From the UHGV virus genome UHGV-0126185: a stretch of DNA of 34,871 bases. One strand, 5' to 3'. This document shows positions 5,532 through 34,601 of the stretch, piece after piece. The translations under genes and the position numbers were made by a program. This DNA comes from a virus. Every line of letters begins with the position of its first letter. Within the stretch, counting starts at the first letter, position 1. The notes under the pieces are model-generated. The model saw only the letters and a program-made list of their open reading frames with translations. It made no database searches and was not told where the DNA came from.

Positions 5532-5541
5532 GGGGTGGGCA

Positions 5542-6597
5542 TTGAGAGCCTTACTTACCCCTGAAATGGTGCCACGCCTTGGCGTGGTGCTGTTCAAGCC
5601 AGGACGGGAGTTAATGCCCCTGTTTGCATCAGGTCGCGTGCTGGTTGAACGGGAGCCAGAAAACATGGCCCGGCTTCCGTCTGGTCGGATCCCCGATGCA
5701 CAGCAACCGCTACTGGATGATGCCAGCCTTCACACTTTCTTTACCGATGAACGGGTCATTACTGCTGCTGGTGGTATGTCCGGGCTTGAGTACTGGCTTC
5801 GTCAGCGCGTTAAAAAGTGCCAGTACCCTGTTTCTGACTACCATCATGCCGAGCTCACAACACTATGGCATCCGCCTGGCGCGCTGGTGGTGTGCTGGCA
5901 TTGCGATAACAAATTGCGTGGGCAGACTACGGAGAGGCTGCAGGCGCTTGCCCTGAGCAATGTTGCCGAGTGGGTTATTGATACCGTACTGGTTGGGCTT
6001 GGCTACAACAAAGAGCGCTCCCTCTCTTTAGCCGAGCTTTGCTGGTGGGCTGTTCAGTCAGGTGTCGCTGATGCCGTCACTGAAGGAATGGCGCAACGGG
6101 CACTACGGTTGCCAGACGAACCATTATTATCTGTTTACCGGGAAAGTGACATCGTACCTATGCCGCCGGCCACCAGCATTATGCAGGAAAAAGTCAGGCC
6201 GATTGAAACGTTACCAGCTCGGCGGTCAGACAGCCTGGATGTGGAAACCCAAAAGCCAATACTGACGTTAACCGTCGATCCGGAGTCTCCGGAGTCTTTC
6301 ATGCTCAGGCCAAAACGTCGCCGCTGGGTAAATGATACGTACACCCGCTGGGTTAAAACACAACCGTGTGAGTGTTGCCGACGGCCAGCAGATGATCCGC
6401 ACCATATCGTAGGGCACGGTATGGGTGGTACAGCAACAAAAGCCCATGACCTCTTCGTGATCCCTCTGTGCAGAGAGTGCCACGATGAGCTGCACGCCGA
6501 TGTACCGGCATTCGAGCAGAAGCATGGTACGCAGCTTGAGCTGCTACTGCGTTTTATGGATCGGGCGCTGGCGATCGGCGTAATTGCGAAAGCTTAA
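5542..6597 (+). CDS. DUF968-like nin-region protein with HNH-like Cys/His C-terminus (YdfU-like)
   Basis: 351 aa; C-terminus carries paired Cys and His motifs (CECCRR...DPHHIVGHGMGG...PLCRECHDELHA); sits between the antirepressor genes and Q, as DUF968 proteins do in lambdoid prophages. Confidence 0.6.
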   Translation: MRALLTPEMVPRLGVVLFKPGRELMPLFASGRVLVEREPENMARLPSGRIPDAQQPLLDDASLHTFFTDERVITAAGGMSGLEYWLRQRVKKCQYPVSDYHHAELTTLWHPPGALVVCWHCDNKLRGQTTERLQALALSNVAEWVIDTVLVGLGYNKERSLSLAELCWWAVQSGVADAVTEGMAQRALRLPDEPLLSVYRESDIVPMPPATSIMQEKVRPIETLPARRSDSLDVETQKPILTLTVDPESPESFMLRPKRRRWVNDTYTRWVKTQPCECCRRPADDPHHIVGHGMGGTATKAHDLFVIPLCRECHDELHADVPAFEQKHGTQLELLLRFMDRALAIGVIAKA

Positions 6598-21761: not shown

Positions 21762-22100
21762 ATGACCAAATTCTCCCTGCTCCCCAATCCGACATTTTCC
21801 GTTACTGCCAGCATCCCGCGCGCTGGGGCCGAAGATGGCAAGCTGACCTTCACTTTCCGCCATAAAACGCTGGACGAGCTGCGCTCCATGGACGAGAAGC
21901 TGCAAAAGGCTGCTGAAGGTAAAAAGGCTGCTATTGAGCCGCAGGCCAATTACCTCATGGAAATTGTCGAAGGCTGGGCGCTGCCGGATGAGTTCAACCG
22001 CGATAACGTGATCATCCTCCTGAAGAACTATCCGCGCGCTTTCGACAGCATCGGTCTGGCCTACACCAAAGAACTGATGGGTATCCGCGAAAAAAACTGA
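21762..22100 (+). CDS. tail assembly chaperone (gpG-like)
   Basis: 112 aa between the major tail protein and tape measure; ends at the slippery heptamer A AAA AAC (22091-22097) immediately before its stop. Confidence 0.75.
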   Translation: MTKFSLLPNPTFSVTASIPRAGAEDGKLTFTFRHKTLDELRSMDEKLQKAAEGKKAAIEPQANYLMEIVEGWALPDEFNRDNVIILLKNYPRAFDSIGLAYTKELMGIREKN

Positions 22101-22405
22101 GGCAGGTCGCCGCAGCGTTGTACACGCCGGGACCGACTCTCGCGGAACTGAGCGCTTTTGGTTTGACGCCTGAGGACGTGGAGGAAGAGGTGGGGATCCT
22201 GCCGTCGGTATGGAAAGCCTTCACTATCTTCTCCACGCTGGCGACTCAATGGCGCGTTGGCGCGGGTGGGGCGACCGGCCTTGATTACAACGTTCTCCCT
22301 TGGGTGTTTGAGTTACACGGGGTTGAGGATGCGGCGGCCTGCATGGCTGACCTTCAGATTATGGAAAGCGAGGCTCTCAAAGTAATGCACAAGGAGACGA
22401 AATAA
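22097..22405 (+). CDS. tail assembly chaperone gpT-like extension, expressed as a G-T fusion by -1 frameshift
   Basis: The ORF at 22118..22405 is in the -1 frame relative to G and stays open back to the slippery heptamer; it overlaps the tape measure start (TAATG). The lambda G/GT arrangement is conserved. Confidence 0.6.
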   Translation: MRQVAAALYTPGPTLAELSAFGLTPEDVEEEVGILPSVWKAFTIFSTLATQWRVGAGGATGLDYNVLPWVFELHGVEDAAACMADLQIMESEALKVMHKETK

Positions 22406-25400
22406 TGACAGACCAAATCGCCTCGATCACATTGCGTGCTGACGTATCCGATCTGAAAACAGCCAGCAATGAACTGGATAAACTCGGTGAAGCCGCGGCG
22501 GGTGCCGTCGGCAAAGCTGATGACCTCAACAGCGTATTCCGTGCTGGTGCTGAGTCTGCGAAGCAGGGCAGCGAAGGTATCAAAGAGCAGCAGATGGCGC
22601 TGAAAGGCCTGCTGGAGAATATCGACCCGGTAAACAAGGCGCTTAACCGGCTGGATGAACAGCAGGCCGCCCTGCGTAACTTCCAGACCAAAGGCTTCCT
22701 GGATACCGATGATTTTCAGCACTACAACAAAATCCTCGACGATACGCGGCTAAAGCTGACGGATACCGGCGAAGCTGCTGCCAGGGCACAAGCCGAACTG
22801 GCAGCGACTCAGGCCGCTGAGAAGCAGTCCGCTGCGCTGAAGAACCTGCTGGGCTCTATCGACCCGACGATCCGCGCATTCAACTCACTGGATGAGCAGC
22901 ACGCGCAGCTGGTGGCGCATTTCGAAGCTGGGCGCATCAACGGCGCGCAGTTCGAGCACTTCAATACAATCCTCAACCAGACGCGGGAGCGTCTGTCTGG
23001 CGTGGCTGACGTGCTGCCAGAGGCACTATCCCGACAGGAAGCAGCGGCGCGTCGTGCCGGTATATCGGTCGGCCAGTACAGCGCCGCGATGCGCACGCTA
23101 CCAGCACAGTTCACAGATATCGCCACACAGCTGGCTGGCGGTCAGTCGCCGTTCCTGATCCTGCTGCAACAGGGTGGGCAGATTAAAGACCAATTTGGTG
23201 GGGTTAAAGGGGCTCTATCGGGGGTGGGCGACTATTTACGCACTCTGTTAGGTTTCATTAATCCTATAACGATAGGTATTAGCGGCCTGGTTGTAGGCCT
23301 CGGGGCGATGGCTGTAGCTTGGTACAAAGGCAGCCAGGAAGCCAGTGAGTTTAATAAGCAGCTCATACTCACGGGTAATTATTCGGCCAGTTCGGCGAGT
23401 CAACTGTCAGACATGGCTCAAAAAATTGGAGGCTCCAGTGGTAAGGTTGCGGCTGCCGCTCGGACGCTCGCGGATGTGGTTGGGGTAGGGACGTTTAAAA
23501 CGGAGCAGCTCGAAACAGTTACCAGGGCGGCGCTGGCGATGCAGGAGGCCACTGGCCAGTCTGTTGACGCCACCATTAAGAACTTCCAAAAGCTGTATGC
23601 CAGCCCAACCAAGGCGGCGGAGGATCTTAATTCTACGCTCCATTTTCTTACCTCATCGCAATACGACTACATTTCGGCACTGGAGCGTCGGGGTGATAAA
23701 GAGGGAGCAGCAGAGGAGGCTGCAAAAGCTTATAGCCTAGCCGAGCAAAAGCGCAGCCAGCAAATCCTCGACAACATGGGATTAATTGAGAGAGCTGCTG
23801 GTAGCGTCAGCAAGGCCCTTAAGGGGATGTGGGATGAACTTCTGAATATTGGTCGCCCTGAAGCTCCGAACGACATGCTCCGCAAGATGCAGTCCGAACT
23901 TGCTGAGCGTGAGAAAGCCTTGCTTCCAGATAGACAGCGTCAGGGATATGGATATAGCTATGATGCGAGCAGTAACGATCAGGAATATGACGCACGTAGG
24001 AAAGCTCAGTTATCAGCGATAAGTGCTTTAAAGGCACAAATAGCGCCACTTCAGCAAGCTGCTCAGCTTCAGGAAGATATTAATGCTTCTATTCAGCAAG
24101 GAACCGAGGATGATAACAAGCGAACTAATGCCCTGATTTATCGAAACCGCATCCTTGAACAGTCAGCTACATGGCAGGAAAAACGCAGCAAGGCCCTGTC
24201 TGAACTTTGGAAAAATGTCGCGGCCTCGCCCGGCGACTGGAGCTCAGCACAGCGGCAGCAGGCTGTAGATGCCATTAATAAACAGTTTCATCCGGACAAA
24301 ACTCCCAAAACTCCAGCCGTTAAGGTTTCAACAGGTGATCGCTCAACCGACACCTACAATGCTGAGACTCTAGCTCTGCAAGCGCAGCTCAAAACGCTGC
24401 AGGATCATCGTGACATCAACGATGTAATCAGCCAGCAGCGTAAGCAGCAGTGGGAGTTAATCTCAAAAATCACCATCCTCGAGTCCACAGCTAACGATCC
24501 GAAAGGGCGTGCATTAACTTTCGATGAAAAATCGTTGCTGGCGAACAAAGAGAAGCTGCTGGCCCAGGCAGATATTAATGCCGGACTGGGTGATCAAATT
24601 GCCAAGCAGCAAAAATTGAACTCATTGGCTGACCAGGCAACTAAGTTCGCCCAGCAACAGTCTGCCAAGCAGGCGGAAATTGCGGCAGCAGCTAGAGGCT
24701 TGTCCACCAGAGAGGCTGAAAGGGAGGCGACGCGCCAGCGCCTGACTGAATCCTACGGCTTTAACCAAGACGCTCAGAAAAAGGTTCTCGCAGATCAAGA
24801 GGAGACCTACCGGAAAGAAGATGAACTTCGCAGCGACTGGCAGGCTGGCGCAAAGCGGGGCTGGGCCGATTATGCCGACTCAGCAACAAACACGTTTGAA
24901 GCAATGCGAAATGTGGCCGGTTCAACCTTCAGTGGTCTATCCGACATGTTGACAGATCTGGTTACTACCGGCACTGCAAGCTTCAAAGACTTCACCAAGT
25001 CCATGTTGAAGATGATCGCGCAGGTAACGAATCAGTTGCTTGTGGCTTACGCCGTTCAGGCTGCGATGGGGTGGATTAGCGGTAGTGCTGGTGGCAACAC
25101 GCCAGGCGGAGCATATGCCAGCGCTGCAAACTCTGGAGTTAGCCTGTTTGATTCCGGTGGTTACACAGGTGCGGGCGGTAAATATGAACCCGCAGGCATC
25201 GTGCATAAAGATGAGTTCGTTTTCACCAAAGAAGCCACTAGGCGGATCGGCGTAGATAACCTATATCGTCTAATGAACAACGGTAATTTAGGCCGTTACG
25301 CTTCTGGTGGGCTTGTTGGGGGAAATCAGGCTGGGGCGGCAGACTCTGGTGTGCCAATTATCAGCGTCAGTTTTGGTGACATAAACATTGGTTCAGGTGG

Positions 25401-25536
25401 ACAGGCCAATACAGGTGGCTCAGCAAATGCTGCAGCTATTGGCAGGCAACTCAACGATGCGATGATTGACACCATTAATACTCAAGTAAGAAAACCAGGC
25501 ACTCCGCTGTGGAATGCCGTTAGAGGGAAATACTAA
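22405..25536 (+). CDS. tail tape measure protein
   Basis: 1043 aa, highly helical with Ala/Gln-rich repeats and a Gly-rich central hydrophobic segment; canonical position after the G/GT chaperones. Confidence 0.9.
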   Translation: MTDQIASITLRADVSDLKTASNELDKLGEAAAGAVGKADDLNSVFRAGAESAKQGSEGIKEQQMALKGLLENIDPVNKALNRLDEQQAALRNFQTKGFLDTDDFQHYNKILDDTRLKLTDTGEAAARAQAELAATQAAEKQSAALKNLLGSIDPTIRAFNSLDEQHAQLVAHFEAGRINGAQFEHFNTILNQTRERLSGVADVLPEALSRQEAAARRAGISVGQYSAAMRTLPAQFTDIATQLAGGQSPFLILLQQGGQIKDQFGGVKGALSGVGDYLRTLLGFINPITIGISGLVVGLGAMAVAWYKGSQEASEFNKQLILTGNYSASSASQLSDMAQKIGGSSGKVAAAARTLADVVGVGTFKTEQLETVTRAALAMQEATGQSVDATIKNFQKLYASPTKAAEDLNSTLHFLTSSQYDYISALERRGDKEGAAEEAAKAYSLAEQKRSQQILDNMGLIERAAGSVSKALKGMWDELLNIGRPEAPNDMLRKMQSELAEREKALLPDRQRQGYGYSYDASSNDQEYDARRKAQLSAISALKAQIAPLQQAAQLQEDINASIQQGTEDDNKRTNALIYRNRILEQSATWQEKRSKALSELWKNVAASPGDWSSAQRQQAVDAINKQFHPDKTPKTPAVKVSTGDRSTDTYNAETLALQAQLKTLQDHRDINDVISQQRKQQWELISKITILESTANDPKGRALTFDEKSLLANKEKLLAQADINAGLGDQIAKQQKLNSLADQATKFAQQQSAKQAEIAAAARGLSTREAEREATRQRLTESYGFNQDAQKKVLADQEETYRKEDELRSDWQAGAKRGWADYADSATNTFEAMRNVAGSTFSGLSDMLTDLVTTGTASFKDFTKSMLKMIAQVTNQLLVAYAVQAAMGWISGSAGGNTPGGAYASAANSGVSLFDSGGYTGAGGKYEPAGIVHKDEFVFTKEATRRIGVDNLYRLMNNGNLGRYASGGLVGGNQAGAADSGVPIISVSFGDINIGSGGQANTGGSANAAAIGRQLNDAMIDTINTQVRKPGTPLWNAVRGKY

Positions 25537-25760
25537 TGAAAATTGCAGAAGTAAAGGTCTCTGATGTTGTTTGGTATGCCAACGAAAATGGAAAGGCGAT
25601 CAGTGCCTTCGTGACTTTCTATGGCCCAGACGATTGCACTCGCATTGCAAGTGTCCCTGTTAACTTGCCATATCAGCTAGACCTGACCCTTAAGCAAGTT
25701 GAAGAGCTTGCCATTGCCACTGCTAAGGGTACGCTAAAAGCGGTCGCTACTAGTTTCTGA
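25536..25760 (+). CDS. hypothetical small protein (cargo)
   Basis: 74 aa; start overlaps the tape measure stop (TAATG); lower GC than the backbone; no lambda counterpart between H and M. Confidence 0.45.
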   Translation: MKIAEVKVSDVVWYANENGKAISAFVTFYGPDDCTRIASVPVNLPYQLDLTLKQVEELAIATAKGTLKAVATSF

Positions 25761-25822
25761 TCGTTACATCCCTATCTCCCCTGGTTATCATGAGAAAAAA
25801 CATGATAATCATGGGGATGATA

Positions 25823-26233
25823 ATGAGAAAAATGTTTTGCTTAAGTTTGGCCTGTATTGCACTTACTGCGTGTAAACCTTCAGAGGAAAAAGCACTACAA
25901 CTCGGGCAACAAGAAATTGCAAATGGGTTGATGGATCCCGATAGCGCCAAATTTAAAATGGTTAGGTTCAATTTGGACAAAAACCAGCAGTCCGGGGATG
26001 TTGTGAGCGGTTTCGTATGTGGCAGGGTTGCTGGGAAGAATGGGCTTGGTGCGTATGTTGGCTACCATCCTTTCTATGTTCATATCAAGATGACTCCCAA
26101 AGGGGCGTTTTCTAAAGGCGTGAATTATGAGATCGGAGAAAAAGCGATATACCCCGATGGAAGAGATGAGTCATGGATAGATCTTGACGGAAACTCTTAT
26201 GTTAGCCGCTGCGGTGCCACACCATCCAAATGA
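25823..26233 (+). CDS. putative lipoprotein (cargo)
   Basis: ORF track starts at 25790; the ATG at 25823 has a gggga RBS and gives a signal peptide with lipobox LTAC (MRKMFCLSLACIALTAC); AT-rich. Confidence 0.55.
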   Translation: MRKMFCLSLACIALTACKPSEEKALQLGQQEIANGLMDPDSAKFKMVRFNLDKNQQSGDVVSGFVCGRVAGKNGLGAYVGYHPFYVHIKMTPKGAFSKGVNYEIGEKAIYPDGRDESWIDLDGNSYVSRCGATPSK

Positions 26234-26275
26234 GTTTATGTAGAGCCTTCTAACCACCACCACTCAACCGAAACC

Positions 26276-26302
26276 CAGCCTCGCTGACGCGGGGCTTTTT
26301 GT
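26276..26302 (+). terminator. putative intrinsic terminator after the lipoprotein gene
   Basis: Imperfect hairpin gcctcgc-tgac-gcggggc followed by TTTTTGTT. Confidence 0.4.
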
Positions 26303-26379
26303 TGCCAACGGGCTGGTGAATGCGGTTGAAATTTGAGCGCCACATTCAGAGGGCGCGAGATACTACAGCAATTTATGGT

Positions 26380-26540
26380 GCAATGCATTGTAAGCAGGGT
26401 CTGTTTTTGTGCAAAAAGTGCTATTTGTGCGCATTGGTACAGATTGAAACGCATTGGAACGTATTGCAACTTTGCACGATCATGTTGTGATTCTGCAATC
26501 ACCTTAGAGGTAATTTCGGTGAAACTGATTGCAACGTGCT
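26380..26540. promoter_or_regulatory. repeat-rich putative operator/promoter region upstream of the Doc-family module
   Basis: Perfect palindrome caatgcattg (26381-26390); direct repeats gcattggtac / gcattggaac (26431, 26451); ATTGCAAC at 26463 and 26528 with inverse TGCAAT at 26494; no convincing protein-coding frame. Confidence 0.3.
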
Positions 26541-26719
26541 TTAAGTGCTTCGGAAATGTCGTCGAACGTGCATCCATCTTCAGACATAGACCCATTGCTC
26601 AAATAAGAAGAATGGTATTAAATTGTCCTCAACCACTAAGAGTGGTCATGAATTCTTTGGATGTGTTTGCATCCTACAATTTGAGAAAGCACTGCCAAAC
26701 GTGCATGAGGGTGATAATC

Positions 26720-26899
26720 ATGGGTCACGCATTAAAAAAGGCAGATCGCTTGTACATTCCGCCTCGTGACAAATCCACAGTGGCGAAACCTCGTGCAGCG
26801 ATCAGCGAAGCATGTTCACATACTGGTCAAGTTAAAAATGCCTTTGAATTTGGATTTGCTCGTTACGAGAAGGCGATGGAAGAACTTTCAAAGGTCTGA
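26720..26899 (+). CDS. small ORF upstream of the Doc-family toxin (putative antitoxin)
   Basis: About 59 aa from the ATG at 26720 (gaggg RBS 8 nt upstream); alternative in-frame starts at 26648 and 26613; stop lies 10 nt before the toxin ATG; family not recognised. Confidence 0.4.
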   Translation: MGHALKKADRLYIPPRDKSTVAKPRAAISEACSHTGQVKNAFEFGFARYEKAMEELSKV

Positions 26900-26909
26900 G
26901 TAAAAACGG

Positions 26910-27407
26910 ATGACGATAGAGTATGTTGAAGGAATCAATTATCTTTCCATTGAAGATATAGTTTACATCAACAAGTCTCTGATCGAGACTCAGACGCCAA
27001 ATGAACCAATAGGTGTGCTGAATCCGAATAACCTCAGTTCTTCACAGTCCCGGCCAAGTACCATTCGATATTATGAGCAGACAGACGATATGTTTCGTCT
27101 GTCTGCTGTTCTAATTGAAAGTCTGATCCAGAATCATCCATTCGCAAATGCAAACAAACGCACCGCCATTATGACCGGTTACGTATTCCTGTTGCTGAAT
27201 GGATATGAGCTTACAGCACCTAGCGATGAGGTCGTTACAATCGCAGAGGGTTTGGCTCGTAAGGATTATTCAGTGGATGATCTGGAAAATTGGTTATGCC
27301 ACTGGTCTCGCGAGTATGATTCCAGAACATTATGTGCAACTGGCGGCAATTCGCTACAGGCTCTCGTGGCGACCTCGCAATACATTCGAATCATATCGAA
27401 TAACTGA
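26910..27407 (+). CDS. Doc-family (Fic/Doc) toxin
   Basis: 165 aa with the Doc signature HPFANANKRTA followed by a hydrophobic helix (IMTGYVFLLLNGYEL), matching the P1 Doc motif H-x-F-x-D/N-A/G-N-K-R-T-A; lysine at the position where Fic proteins carry glycine. Confidence 0.75.
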   Translation: MTIEYVEGINYLSIEDIVYINKSLIETQTPNEPIGVLNPNNLSSSQSRPSTIRYYEQTDDMFRLSAVLIESLIQNHPFANANKRTAIMTGYVFLLLNGYELTAPSDEVVTIAEGLARKDYSVDDLENWLCHWSREYDSRTLCATGGNSLQALVATSQYIRIISNN

Positions 27408-27452
27408 ATCCGCTGAGAGGCGTTTTTTGCAGATTAATACTGAACTATATAA

Positions 27453-27474
27453 CCCGCTTCGGCGGGTTTTTTTA
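27453..27474 (+). terminator. intrinsic terminator
   Basis: Hairpin cccgc-ttcg-gcggg followed by T7; same module as the terminator at 34557. Confidence 0.6.
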
Positions 27475-27484
27475 TGGAGCAAAT

Positions 27485-27835
27485 ATGGCCGTTGAGACAT
27501 ATAACTGGCACTCTCAACTGGGTGCTGGCGCAGTGGAATACAGCCAGACGGTGCGAACGGCTCAGTTTGGCGATGGTTATGAGCAGGTGGCCGAGAACGG
27601 CATTAACTCGACGGCTATTCAGGTACCGATGAAGCATGTGGGCGCTGATTCTGAAGTGAATACCGTTCGGGACTTTCTCCTGGCGCATACCGTTAAGGCT
27701 TTCATCATCACACCGCCGGGCGAAGAGAAGGGGCTATATCGCGTTGTCGCCGACTCCGTGCGCAAAAACCAGATTAGCAGCAAATTCGCTGAGCTGACAT
27801 TCACGATTAAGCGCGCCTATGGCGTCTATGCCTGA
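27485..27835 (+). CDS. minor tail protein M
   Basis: 116 aa; the motif QFGDGYEQVAENGINS matches lambda gpM (RFGDGYSQRAPAGLNA); precedes the L, K, I, J homologues. Confidence 0.8.
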   Translation: MAVETYNWHSQLGAGAVEYSQTVRTAQFGDGYEQVAENGINSTAIQVPMKHVGADSEVNTVRDFLLAHTVKAFIITPPGEEKGLYRVVADSVRKNQISSKFAELTFTIKRAYGVYA

Positions 27836-27843
27836 GGTGGAGC

Positions 27844-28617
27844 ATGACAGCACTGATTGATACGGCGGCAATGTTGGCGCCTGGTGGCAGGGTCCGCCTG
27901 GTCGAAGTAGATGCTTCAGAGTTCAGCGGCGGTATTCATCGCTTCCACTACAGTCCATTTCCCCATACACCCGCCGAGATAGATGCTGCGAACGGCGATG
28001 AGGCAAAGCTAGGACCAAAACCCATCATCTGGGATGGAAAAATCTTCGACTTCTGGCCATTCCAGATTTCCGACCTTGCACTGTCAACCGACCAGGCCGC
28101 AGAACCGAAGCTGAGCGTGTCGAACCTCGACGGGCATATCACTGCGCTCTGTCTGCAGTTTAAAGATATGGTGAATGCAAAGGTGAGCATCATCGACACC
28201 TATGCTGTTTACCTCGATGCCGTGAACTTCCCGGGTGGCGTGAACGCGACAGCTGATCCGTCAATGTTTACTCTCCAGACCTTCTGGCTGGACACCAAAA
28301 CCTCAGAAGATGATGAGGTGGTTACGTGGTCACTCAGTAGCCCTGCGGATTTGCAGAACCTGGTTATTCCCACCCGTCAAATTACATCGCTGTGCGAGTG
28401 GGCGCTGCGAGGCCAGTACCGCAGCGGTGACGGATGTACCTACAACGGAACAGCGTATTTTGATGCGAAGGGGAATGTGGTCGCTGACCCTGCGCTGGAC
28501 GTGTGCGGCGGATGCCTTAGTGACTGCCGTAAACGATTTGGCGCCGGGCTGGCAGAGCCAAACACCGCAATTCTTGATTTCGGCGGTTTCCCCGCAACGG
28601 TTTTATTCTCCCGATAA
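27844..28617 (+). CDS. minor tail protein L
   Basis: 257 aa; matches lambda gpL in YLDAVNF and the C-terminal Cys cluster (CGGCLSDCRKRFG vs lambda CSKCLSGCKFR). Confidence 0.85.
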   Translation: MTALIDTAAMLAPGGRVRLVEVDASEFSGGIHRFHYSPFPHTPAEIDAANGDEAKLGPKPIIWDGKIFDFWPFQISDLALSTDQAAEPKLSVSNLDGHITALCLQFKDMVNAKVSIIDTYAVYLDAVNFPGGVNATADPSMFTLQTFWLDTKTSEDDEVVTWSLSSPADLQNLVIPTRQITSLCEWALRGQYRSGDGCTYNGTAYFDAKGNVVADPALDVCGGCLSDCRKRFGAGLAEPNTAILDFGGFPATVLFSR

Positions 28618-28629
28618 ACGGAAATACCA

Positions 28630-29361
28630 ATGAACAAAACTATTATGGCTGCTATCCGGGCGCATGCACTGGAGGAGTCGCCACGAGAGTGCTGCGGCTT
28701 CGTCATCCAGTCTGGCCGACGCCAGCGCTATATCCCGGTGCCGAACAGCCACGAAAATCCGACCGAGCATTTCCGAATCGACGGAGAGCACTGGGCGAAT
28801 GCAGAGGATATGGGGACGATTATTCGAGTCATACACTCCCATCCAGGCGACGGCGCCCGGCCAATTCCGTCCGATTTGGACCGTCAGCAGTGCAATAACT
28901 CCAGTGTGGTCTGGGGCATCTACGCGCCGGACTGCGATGAATATGCTGAGGTAACGCCGGACGCTATCCCGCTAATCGGCCGCCCGTTCATCCTTGGCTC
29001 TCACGACTGCTGGGGGCTGATCATGGACTGGCATGCCACCCAGAGTGTAATGCTGACTGATTTTCGCGTTGAATACCCGTGGTGGGAAAGCCACTACCCA
29101 GACAACCTGTATTTCGATAACTGGGAGCGGGAGGGGTTTGTCGAATGCGACCCGTCGCCAGGCTGTATGGTCATCATGCAGGTTGAATCCAGTAAGTGGA
29201 ACCACGCGGGGATCATTACCGAGGAAGGCGAGCTGCTTCACCATCTGTACGGGCAACCATCCTGTATCACGCCGTATGCGCGAGGTTATTTCAAAGACAG
29301 GACGATGATCTGCGTCCGTCATAAATATTTGCCGCAGGAGATTCAGCCATGGCGCGCTTAA
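28630..29361 (+). CDS. tail assembly protein K (JAB/MPN and NlpC/P60 domains)
   Basis: 243 aa; ECCGFV and HSHPGDGARPIPSDLD (JAMM-like) plus C-terminal Cys/His peptidase-like region with GELLHH, as in lambda gpK. Confidence 0.85.
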   Translation: MNKTIMAAIRAHALEESPRECCGFVIQSGRRQRYIPVPNSHENPTEHFRIDGEHWANAEDMGTIIRVIHSHPGDGARPIPSDLDRQQCNNSSVVWGIYAPDCDEYAEVTPDAIPLIGRPFILGSHDCWGLIMDWHATQSVMLTDFRVEYPWWESHYPDNLYFDNWEREGFVECDPSPGCMVIMQVESSKWNHAGIITEEGELLHHLYGQPSCITPYARGYFKDRTMICVRHKYLPQEIQPWRA

Positions 29362-34195: not shown

Positions 34196-34303
34196 ACCGA
34201 TCGATTTAAACGATCAATTTTAGAATATTGATCTATTAAAACTATTTTTATTATTCAATGCCATTGGTTATTTTTTGTTTAAATAATTAACTCTGGTATC
34301 GAA

Positions 34304-34543
34304 ATGAAAAATATAATTATTCCAGTTATTGTTTGCCTGGTGCTTTCAGCCTGTTCAGGACCTGTTCTGGAGAAACAGAAACCGGTTTGTCAGGCTGAGT
34401 TAATGTCAGGTGGGTTGACCCAGTCAGTACAGGTCTACGGTGTGCGAAAAGTTGCTAATCAGACTGAGTACAGAGCCGGTTATCCCTTTACCTGGCGATG
34501 GGTGAATAAAAGTAACTTCACCAGTTCGAATTGCCCTCAATGA
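34304..34543 (+). CDS. Cor-like superinfection-exclusion lipoprotein
   Basis: 79 aa; signal peptide with lipobox LSAC (MKNIIIPVIVCLVLSACSG); AT-rich promoter region upstream; position between J and the tail fibre gene and C-terminal W/N-rich region fit lambdoid Cor proteins. Confidence 0.5.
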   Translation: MKNIIIPVIVCLVLSACSGPVLEKQKPVCQAELMSGGLTQSVQVYGVRKVANQTEYRAGYPFTWRWVNKSNFTSSNCPQ

Positions 34544-34556
34544 AATACAAAAAATA

Positions 34557-34578
34557 ACCCGCTTCGGCGGGTTTTTTA
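34557..34578 (+). terminator. intrinsic terminator
   Basis: Hairpin cccgc-ttcg-gcggg followed by T6; near-identical to the terminator at 27453. Confidence 0.6.
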
Positions 34579-34601
34579 TTATCTGAATTCAGGAGACATC
34601 C

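Follow-up and report, generated by a model that had tools for sequence, protein, structure and literature searches.

A conserved 59-residue protein as the likely antitoxin of a Doc subfamily in a putative moron-type cassette between the tape measure and gpM genes of a lambdoid prophage

The tail operon of UHGV-0126185, a 34,871-nt stretch of viral DNA (the window), raises the question of what lies between its tail tape measure gene and the gene for the minor tail protein gpM, which are separated by 1948 bp (25537-27484). We consider it probable that this island, in a lambdoid prophage of Citrobacter type, represents two cargo slots side by side within the tail operon, and that the second slot is a self-contained moron with a type II toxin-antitoxin (TA) operon. 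The two genes at the centre of this reading and the two that delimit the island are as follows:

22405-25536, + strand: tail tape measure gene (phrog_24, 1012 bits), the upstream boundary of the island
26720-26899, + strand: gene of a 59-aa putative antitoxin (phrog_2208, function unknown)
26910-27407, + strand: gene of a Doc-family toxin of 165 aa with the catalytic motif H76-PFANANK-R84
27485-27835, + strand: gene of minor tail protein gpM (PF05939, 70.8 bits), the downstream boundary of the island

By every sequence test applied, the 165-aa protein belongs to the Doc family. The initial annotation had called it a Doc from the signature HPFANANKRTA, and profile hidden Markov model searches confirmed this assignment with scores above the cut-offs of both Pfam Fic (PF02661, 46 bits, cut-off 24) and NCBIfam TIGR01550 (DOC_P1, 'death-on-curing family toxin', 139 bits, cut-off 38.65). 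The open reading frame (ORF) also matched phrog_577 'Doc-like toxin' and the solved Doc proteins PDB 9vzc (E = 1.7e-14, residues 8-127) and P1 Doc (E = 3e-7). Residues H76, F78, N80, N82, K83, and R84 were invariant in 29 and in 37 aligned Doc homologues, and the active site follows the Doc-type motif HxFx(D/N)(A/G)NKR and not the AMPylating motif HxFx(D/E)GNGRxxR. The Doc models end at approximately residue 130 of 165, leaving some 35-40 extra C-terminal residues. The extension of about 40 residues described initially is thus real, though conserved only in part, with approximately 15 conserved residues followed by approximately 23 variable ones. Within its stretch W128-L-x-x-W-x-R-x-x-D-x-R-x-L-C142, residues W128, L129, W132, R134, and D137 were invariant and R139, L141, and C142 nearly so. 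The exact protein is indexed in 215 blocks of a public assembly collection, and NCBI already names the toxin (the exact sequence as 'MULTISPECIES … [Citrobacter]', with close relatives in Salmonella and Enterobacter). The doc ORF further contains a perfect 13-bp inverted repeat on the + strand (27076-27107, residues EQTDDMFRLSA) with a predicted hairpin energy of -24 kcal/mol; the hairpin survives synonymous variation in close relatives and is weaker in Izhakiella (-17.7), Providencia (-11), Rosenbergiella (-9.5), and one Pseudomonas phage (-8.5).

The small ORF that had been noticed ahead of doc was recovered at 26720-26899 as a match to phrog_2208; it has the same orientation as doc and is separated from it by 10 nt. 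In every locus examined from Enterobacterales and Pseudomonas phages, the 59-aa gene was found directly upstream of a Doc of the same subfamily. These loci comprised Providencia, Izhakiella, and Rosenbergiella, Citrobacter-type and related prophages, two Pseudomonas phages, 26 IMG/VR loci with the pair (four of them cut by the contig end), and two of the most divergent members of the family. The pair was kept in the two Pseudomonas phages, the Doc of which is 59-61% identical. The constant place directly upstream of Doc is the signature of a cognate antitoxin, and a small, adjacent, co-oriented gene conserved as a pair with its neighbour is the arrangement expected of a type II TA system. Judged from these sequence relationships, the 59-aa protein is likely the antitoxin of this Doc subfamily. 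Loci that at first appeared to contain the antitoxin gene without doc all gave a full-length Doc in tblastn searches.

Comparison loci and contigs are numbered L001, L002, and so on: L001 is Salmonella phage SW-37, L002 is HK639, L003 is an E. coli prophage, L030, L051, and L052 are IMG/VR contigs, and L012-L019 are other prophages with the same Doc. In SW-37 (L001, 6162-6849), frameshifts break both the 59-aa gene and doc, which represents either decay or sequencing error. A metagenomic contig (L073, 705-1920) encodes a 56-aa family member and a Doc of 145 aa, with the gene of another Fic-domain protein (242 aa) behind them.

The 59-aa proteins are a real, narrow family of stand-alone proteins. 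An indexed search gave 25 clusters, and an exhaustive profile search of 1.84 billion representative proteins gave 33. In 29 of these 33 clusters the proteins have 38-69 aa; the other four have 82-95 aa and match solely over their C-terminal 55-57 residues, so that no domain fusion is evident, and we read them as mis-called starts. Across approximately 35-95% identity the family has 19 invariant columns. Its conserved features are M-G/S-H-A-L-K-K-x-D-R-L-x-I-P-P-R-D-K near the N-terminus and, always as the very end of the protein, Q-V-K-N-A-F-x-F-G-F-x-R-Y-E-K-A-M-E-E-L-S-K-V, with …ELSKV as fixed C-terminus. The exact 59-aa sequence is present on at least 1000 contigs from Salmonella, Klebsiella, Enterobacter, and Citrobacter, where it is labelled only as 'hypothetical' or 'bacteriophage protein'.

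Phd-Doc of P1 is a type II TA system in which Doc is a Fic-fold EF-Tu kinase, and antitoxins of type II systems commonly, but not universally, autoregulate their operon by a DNA-binding domain. The cassette studied here has the toxin family and its motif in common with P1 (HPFANANKR here, HIFNDANKR in P1) and differs in the partner, where neither a PhdYeFM domain nor any similarity to Phd was detected, in the approximately 35 extra C-terminal residues of Doc, and in its location in a tail operon instead of on a plasmid prophage. The partner had been described as unlike Phd from the start; in agreement, searches of the 59-aa protein against Pfam, NCBIfam, PADLOC, and PDB gave no match, and hhalign of the family against P1 Phd gave a probability of 0.3%, so that the pair falls outside a strict definition of Phd-Doc with a Phd/YefM antitoxin. 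The AlphaFold2 model obtained with the family alignment (overall predicted local distance difference test score, pLDDT, 68.5) showed residues 1-33 with low confidence and a helix at residues 34-57 (pLDDT 72-83). With no folded N-terminal domain in this model and no DNA-binding family found in Pfam or NCBIfam, the partner is predicted to lack a folded DNA-binding domain, again in contrast to P1, and autoregulation of the usual type is not indicated. In the predicted C-terminal helix, residues F42, F46, Y49, M53, and L56 stand at distances of 17, 13, 10, 6, and 3 from the C-terminus. The same C-terminal distances apply to the hot spots that experiments mapped in the 73-residue Phd (F56, M/F60, H63, L67, and L70; PMC9207808), and in this respect the helix that ends the partner resembles Phd.

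We then turn to the boundaries of the island. With a GC content of 0.443, the insert lies below every one of 659 same-sized sliding windows (median 0.52); the approximately 1.9 kb of lower-GC DNA reported between the tape measure and M genes is indeed the lowest-GC 1948 bp of the window. HK639, the E. coli prophage L003, and L012-L019 have other genes at this junction, in line with the earlier view of an insertion and not a fixed part of the tail module. An alignment of the junction with related prophages, which had been suggested together with that view, placed the breakpoints at terminators and at the promoter-like -10. Homology of the window with L012-L019 resumes at 26254-26277, at the terminator of a lipoprotein gene; in SW-37, whose genome context differs, the shared stretch is exactly 26264-27472 and reaches from one terminator to the other; and HK639 shares 26277-26621 at 69% identity despite different downstream genes. 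The initial annotation had treated the region as one island. It does consist of inserted cargo, but in two slots, the second of which is a 1.2-kb unit of its own, with copies at other places in phage genomes. As expected of a moron, the DNA has its own terminators (26277-26296 and 27451-27473) and a deviant base composition (GC 0.443), and it is present in some close relatives and absent from others, with different genes between tape measure and M in HK639 and in the E. coli prophage. Our reading of slot 2, drawn from these comparisons, is a moron-type type II TA cassette in an exchangeable slot. Positions 22001-29000 of the window are 100% identical to the JGI metagenome contig 3300045988 Ga0495776_048738.

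Upstream of the pair, approximately 420 bp of non-coding DNA (26297-26719) separate the lipoprotein terminator from the small ORF. This DNA had been labelled a non-coding region; the label has to be corrected to a conserved, putatively promoter-bearing element that is common to other TA cassettes. The non-coding features of the unit are:

26277-26296, + strand: upstream intrinsic terminator with an 8-bp stem and T run, the upstream boundary of the 1.2-kb unit
26297-26625, + strand: conserved non-coding element (~330 bp) that includes the block 26324-26372 and the invariant 21-mer 26405-26425 and whose end resembles a promoter
26433-26470, + strand: four ATTGnnAC direct repeats (26433, 26443, 26453, 26463) in exact 10-bp phase, a candidate protein-binding array
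26595-26621, + strand: promoter-like site (TTGCTC, 15 nt, TG-n-TATTAA), recognised from alignments
26632-26674, + strand: 5' leader with two palindromes, ACCACTnnnAGTGGT (26632-26646) and GGATGn6CATCC (26659-26674)
27410-27428, + strand: weakened cassette-specific terminator, CCGCTGAGAGGCG-T6
27451-27473, + strand: shared terminator, AACCCGCTTCGGCGGGTTTTTTT, which closes the unit on its downstream side and immediately precedes the gpM ribosome-binding site

The upstream terminator is conserved as GCCTCGCnnnnGCGGGGCTTTTT ahead of the element in many loci. The invariant 21-mer TTTTGTGCAAAAAGTGCTATT was found in 49 IMG/VR contigs and in six species-representative genome contigs (five from Enterobacterales, with three Citrobacter, Buttiauxella, and Pantoea, and one from a metagenome-assembled genome labelled Campylobacterales); a binning contaminant is suspected for the last of these (L075). 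None of 5,426 complete E. coli genomes contained the conserved element, and a search of 50,697 phage records gave it in HK639 and SW-37 alone. Its centre occurs in two forms: the window and some six further loci have the four phased ATTGnnAC repeats, and most loci have the palindrome pair CTTGAnnnnTCAAG and ATAGGCnnnGCCTAT; by sequence, both look like protein-binding sites. Generic repeat finders returned almost nothing for this region, and its earlier description as repeat-rich holds only for the four phased copies. The end of the element is conserved as ATTGCTC…TGGTATTAA or the GCTGGCTATAAAAT variant, and similarity between loci with different cargo stops directly after it; we infer a promoter with an extended -10 at this site. 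Within the leader, Izhakiella has a different palindrome at the same position.

At the downstream end, the cassette-specific terminator is intact (…GGCGG-T6) in most related loci and often precedes the shared one. In related loci, the genes between element and terminator fall into classes, among them:

Class A: 59-aa protein, then Doc
Class B: protein of ~200 aa, then YafO toxin (PF13957); in HK639 the pair is HK639_17/18, labelled 'unknown' by GenBank
Class C: SocA/Panacea antitoxin (PF13274) of 190 aa, then a 150-aa protein
Class D: SocA/Panacea antitoxin of 185 aa, then a 142-aa protein
Class E: SocA/Panacea antitoxin of 149 aa, then a 140-aa protein

A few other element loci carry unclassified cargo. 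In HK639 (L002, 3941-4959), the slot taken by Doc in the window is filled by HK639_18, a member of the YafO family (PF13957, 73.8 bits), together with HK639_17, which has no family. The three Panacea (SocA) antitoxin genes (L030, L052, and L051) are each followed by a gene for a 140-150-aa protein without Pfam family, presumably uncharacterised toxins. Where the downstream sequence is long enough, most class A, C, and G loci end at the shared terminator, CCGCTTCGGCGGGT(6-8), as does one of three class D loci; in classes B, E, and H its place is taken by a close variant. Three genome positions were found for the whole unit: the junction of tape measure and M (window, HK639), the junction of K and I (L040 and others), and the nin region (L063, SW-37), where the copies lie upstream of DUF1367-NinG-Q.

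A working model for slot 2 (26264-27473) comprises the upstream terminator, the ~330-bp element ending in a putative promoter, a leader of ~100 nt, a bicistronic TA operon, and two terminators. In the lysogen, the cassette's own promoter would drive synthesis of the 59-aa antitoxin and Doc, and the terminators would keep transcription out of gpM; during lytic growth, antiterminated late transcription would pass through them. Doc would act as a Fic-fold kinase, most likely phosphorylating EF-Tu at Thr382/383 and stopping translation, as shown for its family. The 59-aa protein would be a minimal antitoxin without DNA-binding domain, predicted by the model to have a disordered N-terminus and one C-terminal amphipathic helix. 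This helix may bind Doc directly and so neutralise it, in the manner of the C-terminal helix of Phd, and the conserved motif at the N-terminus may touch the C-terminal extension that sets this Doc subfamily apart. Expression would be set by the conserved element independently of the cargo, because the antitoxin presumably cannot bind DNA; such cargo-independent control would explain how one element drives unrelated TA pairs. The pair may serve to retain the prophage, to provide abortive defence against other phages, or to do both.

Several points weigh against this reading. We infer toxicity, neutralisation, and the kinase target alike. The predicted structure of Doc is poor (pLDDT 56). A PDB profile search with the 59-aa family found no Phd chain and no significant similarity to any solved protein, so that neither this search nor hhalign gave a sequence link to Phd or to a solved chain. 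The Phd-like spacing of hydrophobic residues in the partner helix is a hypothesis and a lead rather than a test, because any amphipathic helix shows such spacing. The site at 26595-26621 was not called by a consensus promoter scan, as its -35 matches in 3/6 positions and its -10 is without the final T, and for this reason the promoter can only be taken as putative. E. faecalis Doc (PDB 9vzc) is reportedly neutralised via antitoxin-mediated dimerisation and not by occlusion of the catalytic motif (PMC13034048), and the binding mode of the pair described here could therefore differ from the one proposed. Finally, a defence role is without direct support because PADLOC defence models gave no convincing match, with only weak partial Fic-motif hits to PDC-S23 and PDC-S05, both candidate systems (E 0.003-0.03, best 0.0034).

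The alternative that survives best concerns the role of the pair: it may mainly be an addiction module that penalises loss or excision of the prophage, like Phd-Doc of the plasmid prophage P1, rather than a device for anti-phage defence. We regard this as a serious possibility, though not the favoured one. P1 Phd-Doc is the prototype of the family, as the name of TIGR01550 reflects, the cassette occurs at several positions in chromosomally integrating prophages, and none of the defence-system models matched it. The suspicion of an unusual TA or defence cassette voiced in the initial annotation was justified in so far as the pair is of TA type by sequence; it is neither rare nor odd, and the defence part of the suspicion found no convincing model. 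On the other side, it is less obvious what an integrated prophage would gain from post-segregational killing, and the same slot carries Panacea-type pairs, a family discussed in connection with phage defence (PMC10440598). The addiction and defence roles are not mutually exclusive.

Strong conservation across different cargo would also be expected if the ~330-bp stretch encoded a small RNA or a small protein instead of serving as promoter and operator DNA. The element has several local palindromes, and a minus-strand promoter-like TTTGCA-17-TACAAT (26415-26387) faces the terminator 26296-26277, the stem of which is palindromic. However, RNAalifold gave only -5.1 and -3.1 kcal/mol for the element, its sub-region yielded nothing beyond the terminator hairpin on either strand, and no Rfam family matched, so that a structured small RNA on either strand was rejected. 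A small protein is countered by stops in all six frames (median 4-8 per frame in 45 distinct copies). The long minus-strand ORF of 119 aa (26236-26595) was rejected as a gene since it is open in only 3 of the 45 distinct homologues (window, L035, and L023) and is thus nearly specific to the window. Taken together, we judge a coding or small-RNA function of the element unlikely. The JGI record annotates the minus-strand ORF as a 113-aa gene running through terminator and element, which is probably a spurious call.

A different role would follow if Doc were the phage's own host-takeover effector, made late by read-through to shut down host translation, with the 59-aa protein timing or tempering it. 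The cassette does lie inside the late tail operon in the same orientation, and PHROGs lists phrog_577 under 'moron, auxiliary metabolic gene and host takeover'. We give this idea little credence: the unit also occurs in the early nin region and beside integrases, so that a late-operon position is not required, it has its own promoter-like element and terminators, and a late block of EF-Tu would hurt phage protein synthesis as well. It is equally hard to believe that the 59-aa protein serves as a regulator or chaperone instead of an antitoxin, or is a mis-called ORF, and that Doc is otherwise controlled or inactive, for although it has no Pfam, NCBIfam, or PDB similarity and the confidence of its model is moderate (pLDDT 68.5), the 19 invariant columns and the fixed …ELSKV end show conservation at the protein level, its position and size are typical of an antitoxin, it stands beside Doc in every locus examined, and the catalytic motif of Doc is intact.

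The first slot (25536-26296), which precedes the TA cassette, would comprise a tape-measure-linked 74-aa gene, a lipoprotein gene, and a terminator. Its two genes, and the gene that follows gpM, are:

25536-25760, + strand: gene of a 74-aa protein, function unassigned (phrog_2891, E = 3.5e-21), in TAATG overlap with the tape measure stop
25823-26233 (longest ORF from 25790), + strand: gene of a predicted lipoprotein, cargo of the variable slot (MRKMFCLSLACIALTAC, lipobox LTAC; phrog_2320, E = 7e-32)
27844-28617: gpL (PF05100)

The coupling of the 74-aa ORF to the tape measure stop, as first described, was verified by the overlap of its ATG as TAATG. The E. coli prophage L003 has the same gene (5537-5761) after its tape measure gene. 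In Citrobacter and E. coli prophages it co-occurs with one type of C-terminal half of the tape measure protein and is absent where that half differs; prophages with a different tape measure C-terminus have other unknown genes in its place. As a companion of one particular type of tape measure C-terminus, the 74-aa gene may be better grouped with the tape measure gene than with the cargo, and a functional link between the two proteins may exist. The lipoprotein with its own terminator was likewise recovered as initially annotated, with the lipobox LTAC and the terminator 26277-26296 after the ORF. Its start at 25823 fits NCBI members of 136 aa; a 13-nt near-duplicate at 25787-25832 surrounds two candidate starts (ATCATGAGAAAAA and ATAATGAGAAAAA), the second of which fits these 136-aa relatives. 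Other genes replace the lipoprotein in L003 and L012-L019, with a zinc-ribbon protein taking its place in the E. coli prophage L003; this one zinc ribbon was all that a Pfam search of the variable-slot proteins of related loci returned. A surface or exclusion role for slot 1 is a guess.

A second moron is located at 34196-34600 of the window (GC 0.378), where the gene of a Cor-like 79-aa lipoprotein (34304-34543) ends in the same terminator stem-loop. The terminator downstream of doc had been called identical to the one after this gene; the stem-loop is identical at 34556-34578, whereas the T tract has one mismatch.

The lom and bor genes of lambda are lambdoid morons. The TA cassette shares with lambdoid morons the insertion between late genes as a unit with its own terminator and, putatively, its own promoter, the deviant composition, and the patchy presence among relatives; it differs in that its flanks (the 330-bp element and the terminator) are conserved and its two-gene cargo is swapped among at least five TA types. 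In HK97, the moron gp15 lies next to the tape measure gene (PMC11364771). As in the prophage hotspots of anti-phage systems in P2 and P4 (PMC9122126), a fixed phage-genome position holds variable defence or TA cargo; here, however, phage group and position are different, the cargo so far consists only of TA pairs, and the slot itself, with its conserved flanks, recurs at three places in phage genomes. Among solved Doc proteins, the closest in sequence belongs to the Phd-Doc system of E. faecalis (PDB 9vzc; PMC13034048), which is chromosomal and has a Phd with a DNA-binding domain. With regard to the partner, the NetFlax network (PMC10440598) documents a portable element 'Phd-C', with which a Panacea antitoxin neutralises Doc, as well as single-domain or stand-alone antitoxins. 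There, a short linear helical element on varied scaffolds or alone is enough for neutralisation of Doc, and Panacea-type pairs, as found in that network, fill the same slot in phages related to the one studied here. Unlike Phd-C, the element of the 59-aa protein would stand alone with an extra conserved N-terminal motif, and the likeness is one of principle.

Doc toxins, TA morons, and prophage cargo hotspots are already known. What appears to be new is phrog_2208 as partner of this Doc subfamily and, further, the frame of element plus terminator that is common to several unrelated TA pairs at three genome positions. A literature search with incomplete coverage found no description of the phrog_2208-Doc pairing or of the element-terminator frame. 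More speculatively, and less likely than not to hold as a whole, element and shared terminator may form a plug-and-play TA/defence socket of lambdoid phages of Enterobacteriaceae under a postulated DNA-binding factor, and at the same time the 59-aa protein may represent a new class of minimal antitoxin with two elements. In this combined proposal, the factor would read the four phased ATTGnnAC repeats or the alternative palindromes independently of the cargo, and the two elements of the antitoxin would be a Phd-C-like helix and the IPPRDK motif, the latter engaging the C-terminal extension of Doc.

The unit is common in Citrobacter, Salmonella, and Enterobacter, and a very common 59-aa protein can now be named as the likely antitoxin of a Doc toxin annotated as 'orphan'. 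Should it neutralise Doc while lacking a DNA-binding domain, it would serve as a minimal inhibitor of Doc of natural origin, relevant to work on peptide inhibitors of Salmonella Doc. The finding also raises the question whether expression of phage-borne TA systems is under phage control rather than antitoxin control. Element and terminator frame at least five two-gene cassettes, several proteins of which are without any family, and thus provide a handle for finding new TA and defence cargo of prophages.

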